Shown: positions 46,609 through 48,690, counted from the stretch's first letter. The stretch: 55,557 bases of DNA from Actinomycetota bacterium (GCA_005888295.1 VAWP01000110.1:1-55557), one strand, 5' to 3'. Program-made: numbers and translations. The notes: generated by a model from the letters alone, not told the origin.

Positions 46609-48690
46609 CTATTCGCCTCGCACCCGAGCCACGATCTCCCTGGAGATCGACTCGGGAACCTGCTGATAGGAGTTGAACTGCATGGTGTACGTCGCACGTC
46701 CCTGCGTGCGAGACCGCAGGTCAGTAGCGTAGCCGAACATGTCGGACAGGGGCACCAGGGCCCGCACGACATGGCTGTTGCCCCGCTGCTCCATTCCTTC
46801 CACCCGGCCCCGACGGGAGGAGAGATCGCCGATCACGTCGCCCATGTAATCCTCCGGCGTCACGACCTCGACGGCCATGATCGGCTCCAGGAGGACGGCG
46901 TGGGCGAGCCGGGCGGCCTTCTTCACCGCCATGGAACCGGCGATCTTGAAGGCCATCTCGGACGAGTCCACGTCGTGGTACGAACCGTGGGTGAGCGTCG
47001 CCCGGACGTCGACCATCGGGTAACCGGCCAGGACCCCTGAGGTCAGGGCCTCCTGGATCCCGGCATCGACCGAGGGTATGTACTCCTTGGGAATGACCCC
47101 GCCGACGATCTTGTCCACGAACTCGTAGCCGCCTCCGGGGCCCGTGGGCTCGAGGTCGATGACCACGTGGCCGTACTGGCCTCGACCGCCGGTCTGGCGG
47201 ACGTAGCGTTCCTCGACCTTGGAGGCCGACTGGGTGATGGTCTCCCGGTAGGCGACCTGCGGGCGGCCGACGTTGGCGTCGACCTTGAACTCGCGCAGCA
47301 TGCGGTCGACCAGCACCTCGAGGTGCAGCTCGCCCATTCCCGAGATGACGGTCTGGCCCGTCTCCTCGTCCGAGTGGACCTGGAAGGTCGGGTCCTCTTC
47401 GGACAGCGCGAACAGCGCCTTGCCCAGCTTGTCCTGGTCGGCCTTGGTCTTGGGCTCGACGGCCACATGGATGACGGGCTCGGGGAACTCGAGCGACTCG
47501 AGCACGATCGGGTTCGCCGGATCGCACAGGGTGTCTCCGGTCGTCGTGTACTTGAGACCGACGGCCGCCACGATGTCGCCGGCGAAGATGGCTTCCTTGT
47601 CCTCGCGGTGATTGGCGTGCATCTGCAGGATGCGGCCGATCCGCTCCTTGCGGTCCTTGGTCGAGTTGAGGATCGAGCTTCCCTTGGCCAGGGTGCCGCT
47701 GTAGACGCGGAAGTAGGTGAGCCGGCCGACGTACGGGTCGCTCATGATCTTGAACGCGAGGGCCGAGAACGGCGCGGCATCGTCCGGCTCCCGCTCCAAC
47801 TCCTCGATCCCCTTGACGTCCACGCCGGCCGTCGGAGGCACGTCGAGCGGGCTGGGCAGGAAGTCGACAACAGCGTCGAGCATGGGCTGGACGCCCTTGT
47901 TCTTGAAGGCGGACCCGCACAGCACGGGGACCACCATGTTCTCGATCGTCCCCTGACGAAGAGCTCGCCGAAGGTCGTCGGGGCTGATCTCCTCGTCGCC
48001 GACGTACTTCTCCATGACCACATCGTCGAACTCGGAGACGACGTCGATGAGGTCGTGGTGGGCTGCCTCGGCGGCGGCCGCCATGTCGGCCGGGATGTCC
48101 TCGACCGACCAGCGCTCTCCCATGCCCTCCTCCCACACGAGGGCCTTCTGTCCGATGAGATCGATGCAGCCTCGGAAGTGGCCCTCGGCGCCGATCGGGA
48201 TCTGCACCACGGCGGGCTTGGCGTCGAGGCGATCGCGGATCATGTCGACCGATCGGCCGAAGTCGGCGCCGATCCGATCCATCTTGTTGACAAAGCAGAT
48301 CCGCGGGACACCGTATTTGTCGGCTTGGCGCCAGACGGTCTCCGATTGCGGCTCGACGCCGGCAACCGAGTCGAAAACGGCAACCGCGCCGTCGAGCACA
48401 CGAAGGCTCCGCTCGACCTCGATCGTGAAATCGACGTGGCCGGGCGTGTCGATGATGTTGATCCGGTGATCTTGCCAAAAGCAGGTCGTCGCGGCCGAGG
48501 TGATGGTAATGCCGCGCTCCTGCTCTTGCGCCATCCAATCCATCGTCGCGGTGCCGTCGTGCACCTCACCCATCTTATAGGCGCGGCCGGTGTAATAGAG
48601 GATGCGCTCGGTAGTTGTCGTCTTGCCGGCATCGATGTGAGCCATGATGCCGATGTTTCGGTATCGCTCGAGAGGTGTGGTGCGCGCCAT
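46609..48690 (-). CDS. fusA: Elongation factor G (full length, with an internal codon-usage breakpoint)
   Basis: 693 aa from ATG 48690: [47 protein letters not shown]... The first ~150 codons have many A/T-ending codons; the rest have few. Confidence 0.93.

Follow-up and report, generated by a model that had tools for sequence, protein, structure and literature searches.

A probable assembly join of an acidimicrobial and an alphaproteobacterial genome inside fusA

In this study we analysed a stretch of DNA of 55,557 nt (the window), which is one complete contig and N-free throughout. Our comparisons point, at a probability of about 93%, to a contig that was misjoined in silico from two genomes through a k-mer common to both, and that would represent no biological feature. 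The assembler would have appended 7.3 kb from the genome of a co-occurring alphaproteobacterium to a piece of an Acidimicrobiia genome, ~48.3 kb long. The point of contact would lie inside fusA at the G4 (NKMD) motif of its product, in an exact 29-nt stretch which the two organisms have in common.

Gene content, nearest relatives and composition along the contig

The left part of the window, positions 1 to 48262 (~48 kb, ~70% GC), belongs to a soil member of the Acidimicrobiia (Actinomycetota), and independent contigs (L091-L096, L098-L106) are 98-100% identical to it. Pfam annotation describes an ordinary actinobacterial housekeeping region. Its genes are, in order, purN, sucCD, pcrA/uvrD, guaA, a guaB-like gene, a NUDIX gene, groEL-groES, tsaD/rimI/tsaB/tsaE and the UDG gene, followed by glmS, glmM, rpsI/rplM, truA, rplQ-rpoA-rpsD/K/M, infA, map, adk and secY, and finally by the spc and S10 operons, RibD_C and HxlR genes, rpsJ, tuf and the 3' 1.65 kb of fusA. 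The genes were named by Pfam, and some of them, for example secY, adk, map, infA, rpoA, rpsD/K/M, glmS and groEL, by translated sequence and position without a family search. Next to the join, on the minus strand, lie the acidimicrobial tuf (EF-Tu, 395 aa; 45360-46547), whose exact protein occurs on six independent contigs and which is 82-87% identical to its counterparts in Acidimicrobiia MAGs, and the acidimicrobial rpsJ (S10, 108 aa; 45023-45349), which was assigned by protein matches to Acidimicrobiia MAGs.

The position of rpsJ is an observation in its own right. The gene is set apart from the rest of the S10 operon, with rplC at 41404-42297 and intervening genes at 42656-44641. These are a gene with a RibD_C domain, a divergent regulator of the HxlR family and a second ORF, which has no Pfam match in our annotation and is annotated as RibD_C by JGI on contig L092. 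We take the arrangement to be native to the acidimicrobial parent, because the independent contig L092 is 99.5% identical.

To the right of a crossover interval of 29 nt (48263-48291, minus strand), which is identical in both parental sequences, the window continues with 7.3 kb of an uncultured soil alphaproteobacterium (48292-55557, ~63% GC) up to the contig end. One contig, L097, is 99.8% identical over ~50056-48263, and the loci L081-L090 are 90-95% identical to the segment. Its genes, again on the minus strand, are all alphaproteobacterial. They comprise rpsG (S7, 156 aa; 48768-49238), the exact protein of which is found in 150 blocks of the collection, in a cluster whose members carry the name 'Alphaproteobacteria bacterium', and rpsL (S12, 123 aa; 49248-49619), which is 90-95% identical to L070, L073, L075 and L076. 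Further right is rpoC (1388 aa; 49888-54054), which is 73-78% identical to L073 and L076 as against ~53% to Acidimicrobiia and agrees in length with the RpoC of L081-L090. Beyond it lies the 3' part of rpoB (54193-55557), recognised by tblastn and by alignment to L081, L082, L086, L088 and L090. The alphaproteobacterial part is a terminal tail which stops inside rpoB, where this gene is cut by the contig end.

The fusA ORF spans both parts (46609-48690, minus strand). An ATG opens an uninterrupted frame of 693 aa, in which residues 1-133 are alphaproteobacterial, 134-143 shared and 144-693 acidimicrobial. The earlier note, which had been made from the sequence of the window, had described this EF-G as full length and in frame, with no indel at the break, and the uninterrupted ORF bears this out.

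For the comparison of nearest relatives, an EF-G scan of the GTDB species-representative genomes provided 80 loci with 10-kb flanks, with which the proteins of the window were compared by tblastn. The best matches of the right-segment proteins, namely the RpoB fragment, RpoC, S12, S7 and EF-G 1-150, are in the alphaproteobacterial MAGs L070, L073, L075 and L076, at 73-95% identity, and in Acidimicrobiia the identity is only ~53-57% for RpoB, RpoC and S7. The margin is narrow for S12 and EF-G 1-150, which are highly conserved and have their best actinobacterial matches at ~79% and 86-88%. For EF-G 151-693, EF-Tu, S10 and the whole set of ribosomal proteins encoded from 33 to 46 kb, the best tblastn matches are in Acidimicrobiia MAGs, at 58-88%. 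Against Alphaproteobacteria the values are lower, with 40-63% for S10 and the ribosomal proteins, 77% for EF-Tu and ~57% for EF-G 144-693. The nearest relatives change abruptly, from Acidimicrobiia to the left of 48262 to Alphaproteobacteria to the right of 48292, and we consider the taxonomic switch at the fusA junction, as read from these matches, to be a very strong signal. The earlier note had called the genes to the right alphaproteobacterial and those to the left Actinomycetota in type; the split by tblastn is clean, and the left side can be named more closely as Acidimicrobiia. The note had also set against its own reading the case in which both halves of EF-G fall into one lineage. We see the contrary, with alphaproteobacterial best matches for residues 1-150 and acidimicrobial ones for residues 151-693.

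A step in composition and codon usage coincides with the junction. Along the window, GC is 0.69-0.75 over 1-43 kb and drops to 0.62-0.66 over 48-55 kb. Codons ending in A or T make up 30 of the first 152 codons of fusA, 15 of the following 150 (153-302) and 37 of the remaining 391, and they number 29 of 156 in rpsG and 11 in the first 140 codons of tuf. The tallies of the earlier note (~31/152, ~15/150, ~29/156 and ~11/140) were essentially exact when compared with this recount of 30, 15, 29 and 11. By maximum likelihood the change point in fusA falls at codon 138 (2*dLL = 12.3; p = 0.017 by permutation of the codon flags). The codon-usage signal by itself is real but modest. When the junction is set independently from homology, the share of codons in fusA with A or T in third position is 28/133 (0.21) upstream and 53/550 (0.096) downstream (Fisher p = 8e-4), and for pooled genes it is 0.154 on the right versus 0.078 on the left (p = 5e-10).

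We also considered whether the drop in GC could be a trait of highly expressed genes, and rejected this, as the native acidimicrobial fusA on L091 has only 5 A/T-ending codons in its first 140. At the 5' end of fusA the alphaproteobacterial genes have 25-27 such codons in 140 and the window 28 in 133, compared with the 5/140 of L091.

The junction and its parent sequences

Both parents are found unchimerised in independent assemblies. On the acidimicrobial side, six short independent contigs carry the EF-Tu of the window, and one among them, L091, holds the end of rpoC, S12, S7, an EF-G of 698 aa, EF-Tu and S10, all of Acidimicrobiia type. On the alphaproteobacterial side, a 44-mer taken immediately to the right of the junction matched a single JGI contig, L097, which runs on past the junction as a native alphaproteobacterial fusA. 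This contig and the acidimicrobial contigs L092 and L098 all come from the JGI soil metagenome 3300026552, so the two parents co-occur. The S7-bearing contigs which we read, some of them long-read, reach >1 Mb and have the gene order L10-L7/L12-rpoB-rpoC-S12-S7. All of them that pass rpsG go on into a fusA of native alphaproteobacterial type (691 aa if unbroken), and those among L081-L090 that reach further have tuf (EF-Tu) and the S10 operon after the native EF-G. The native EF-G lengths are 691 aa in the alphaproteobacterial and 698 aa in the acidimicrobial form, versus 693 aa in the window.

At base resolution, the crossover covers the 29 nt at 48263-48291, which read GTCAACAAGATGGATCGGATCGGCGCCGA on the coding strand and encode 10 residues with the G4 NKxD (NKMD) motif of the EF-G GTPase domain. 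These 29 nt are identical in the window, L091, L093, L097 and L081. The earlier note had placed the break within 48100-48320, where the crossover indeed lies, and around the G4 block at ~48245-48275; the 11-residue block is in fact at 48259-48291, ~15 nt away. On the left, identity to L091, L093 and L094 is 100% over 46609-48291. L091 departs from the window at 48292 and is ~78% identical to it over the remainder up to the start codon. On the right, 4 mismatches separate the window from L097 over the ~1.8 kb between ~50056 and 48263 (99.8% identity). Position 48262 is where the window starts to differ from L097, and also from each of the 9 other alphaproteobacterial loci; beyond it, the identity to L097 is ~55-70%. 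The same switch is visible in the protein, where residues 1-133 are identical to L097 at 133 of 133 positions and to L091 at 110 of 133, and residues 144-693 are identical to L091 at 550 of 550 positions and to L097 at 289 of 503. With identities of 100% and 99.8% to the parents, no amelioration is seen on either side. Two independent contigs of the acidimicrobial parent, L093 and L094, break off at 48268 and 48255, respectively, and the junction site therefore behaves like a branch point of an assembly graph.

The chimeric form itself was found in the window only. The exact 693-aa EF-G is not on record in an exact look-up, and a junction-spanning 60-mer with three wildcard positions had 0 matches in 241 million JGI metagenome records. 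A search with EF-G 1-300 among 5.8 billion proteins returned no protein that reproduces the junction, and the best match with full coverage, P0002 at 91%, is a native acidimicrobial protein. The absence from other data sets is negative evidence, and the exact-match searches would overlook a diverged copy of the junction.

The top match of the protein search, P0001 (629 bits), was considered as a second instance of the junction and rejected, as it has a tandemly duplicated G domain and is a different artefact. The same architecture, with two copies of AHIDAGKTT...NKMDR, is seen in P0012, the two being public entries named 'EF-G' / 'GTP-binding protein'. P0001 and P0012 are additional artefacts of assembly, again located in this conserved portion of fusA.

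Two smaller observations concern the parent contigs. The last ~190 nt of L097 (positions 3326-3514) are GC-rich and match neither the rpoC of the window nor any alphaproteobacterial relative, and L097 may itself end in chimeric sequence. In the comparison with L091 over 3.3 kb, 12 of the 13 mismatches are packed into a 120-nt stretch of rpsJ (45157-45275), which suggests strain-level mosaicism or consensus mixing in the acidimicrobial population.

Explanations for the join

In the explanation which we favour, the shared stretch would be a node in a k-mer graph with two entrances and two exits, at which, we infer, the assembler took the wrong exit. An identity of 29 nt would mislead an assembler only at a k of ~30 or less, or through a short-overlap merge. 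Because the two collinear fusA genes would be joined in register, the product is a full-length, in-frame EF-G of 693 aa which would be encoded by no organism.

Stretches conserved between species have been described as 'chimeric nodes' in multi-species de Bruijn graphs (PMC8171044), and in chimeric contigs the chimeric sequence sits at the contig ends (PMC8172020). The window resembles such contigs (PMC8171044, PMC8172020) in that the switch occurs at a stretch identical in both organisms, beyond which the parents continue separately, and in that the chimeric part lies at the contig end with a step in composition at the join. Most chimeric contigs described so far combine closely related genomes with long identical stretches, as for example Salmonella and E. 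coli (PMC8172020). Unlike these, the window joins members of two phyla, Actinomycetota and Pseudomonadota, which share a stretch of only 29 nt. A further difference from 'chimeric node' contigs is that the join in the window keeps a full-length frame, so that it resembles a mosaic gene.

Natural mosaic genes are formed when related species exchange DNA by homologous recombination, and translation-factor genes are known to undergo gene conversion. Such mosaics typically have a pair of crossovers flanked by recipient sequence, are seen again in related isolates and combine partners of high overall identity. The fusA of the window is like them an in-frame hybrid of two homologues with the crossover in a conserved block. 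Unlike them, it has one crossover, foreign DNA for 7.3 kb to the contig end and no second instance, and its partners are ~70-78% identical around the junction.

One might nevertheless ask whether the hybrid is real, and results from a very recent natural recombination between phyla. Alphaproteobacterial DNA would then have replaced the acidimicrobial region from rpoB through rpoC, rpsL and rpsG to the 5' part of fusA, with one crossover in the 29 nt and a functional hybrid EF-G as its outcome. The EF-G is full length and in frame, donor and recipient come from the same habitat, and the 29 nt of the shared stretch are about the shortest identity with which recombination of the RecA type works. 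The consequence would be an Acidimicrobiia genome with a hybrid inter-phylum EF-G and a foreign RNA polymerase core. However, the genome that is 100% identical on the acidimicrobial side has the native fusA 5' end, S7, S12 and rpoC, and neither the JGI metagenome contigs nor the protein collection yielded the junction. The exchange would have swapped RNA polymerase beta and beta' and S7 for versions that are only ~53-57% identical (~79% for S12). The imported rpoB is moreover broken by a 71-nt frameshift at 55124/55125, so that the transferred essential genes are not intact, and the 99.8% identity to the donor leaves no trace of amelioration. A second crossover is not seen either, the foreign DNA continuing for 7.3 kb to the contig end, where the sequence stops, which is no proof of its absence. 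We consider genuine recombination very improbable. The earlier note had already ranked a genuine recombinant EF-G as the less likely reading, and with the native arrangement on L091, the broken rpoB and the lack of a second crossover we find this alternative unsupported.

A join made in vitro has a somewhat better, though still small, chance of being correct. In this scenario template switching during library preparation, or re-priming after incomplete extension, at the NKMD stretch would have produced chimeric reads that led the assembler across. Identical stretches of two templates are where PCR-mediated recombination takes place, and it is such a stretch that holds the crossover here; the two templates also co-occur in one sample. 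But such events are rare per site, and the native reads would outvote them. The contig also has a number of further local errors, which by their nature point to the assembler, and independent assemblies merely break at the junction site. A chimera formed in this way would still be an artefact.

The reading preferred by the earlier note was a chimeric join through a conserved stretch, arising from either assembly or binning. The assembly part of this reading agrees with the presence of both parents, the shared 29-mer and the unique junction. Its binning part, by which two correct contigs from different organisms would merely have been put into one bin, has practically no probability left. Both parts are on one N-free contig of 55,557 nt, and binning cannot make a join within a contig. 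As the join is inside a single contiguous sequence, the error is one of assembly. This continuity excludes binning as the cause, and the foreign material is not on separate contigs.

Consequences for curation and other defects in the contig

If the contig is an assembly misjoin, as we think, the finding is a matter of quality control and curation and not one of biology. The contig is present in public collections, and its EF-Tu is listed under NCBI, JGI/IMG and ENA, in a cluster whose longest contig measures 55,557 nt, the length of the window. The last 7.3 kb would bring alphaproteobacterial markers (rpoB, rpoC, rpsL, rpsG and half of fusA) into an Acidimicrobiia bin. This foreign tail would skew marker-gene phylogenies and contamination estimates, and it would put an 'EF-G' of 693 aa that is not encoded by any genome into protein databases. 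We suggest that positions 48,292-55,557 should leave the bin. The case further indicates that an identity of 29 nt in a universally conserved GTPase motif can suffice to bridge two phyla in assembly, and that an in-frame join can pass for a mosaic gene.

The contig has four further frame-breaking deletions in conserved genes: 46 nt in groEL, ~50 nt in rimI, 56 nt in tsaE and 71 nt in rpoB. The whole contig should therefore be treated as of low quality. The defects were judged against independent contigs that are 98-99.9% identical. In groEL (minus strand, ORF 10894-12171), the 46 nt missing at 10919/10920 are present in L098, L101 and L102. The resulting frameshift leads to a stop of GroEL at 425 aa instead of 555 aa, and the C-terminal part continues in another frame to ~10550. 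In rimI, ~50 nt are missing at ~13826-13836 (near 13830) compared with L101-L104 and L106, which creates an artificial ORF of 594 aa (12609-14393) in which the frames of a RimI-like acetyltransferase and of TsaD are fused. The defect at tsaE and the 3' end of the UDG gene is of a different appearance. Here a patch of 170 nt (15246-15416) is ~65-70% identical to the contigs to which its flanks are 99.8% identical, and a 56-nt deletion at 15246 adjoins this foreign patch and splits TsaE into two ORFs. L104 has a run of Ns, that is a scaffold gap, at the same place. A look-up of the UDG protein, for which a start was assumed, gave no match. Patch and deletion together look like a local misassembly at the strain level. 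In the rpoB of the alphaproteobacterial tail, 71 nt are missing at 55124/55125 relative to all relatives aligned or BLAST-matched there (L081-L090), and the frame is broken. Collapsed scaffold gaps and low-coverage bridging are possible causes of these deletions of 46-71 nt.

In guaA, it is the independent JGI contig L098 that is without 36 nt, in frame, which are present in the window at 7492-7527. Short deletions thus arise in other assemblies of this soil community too.
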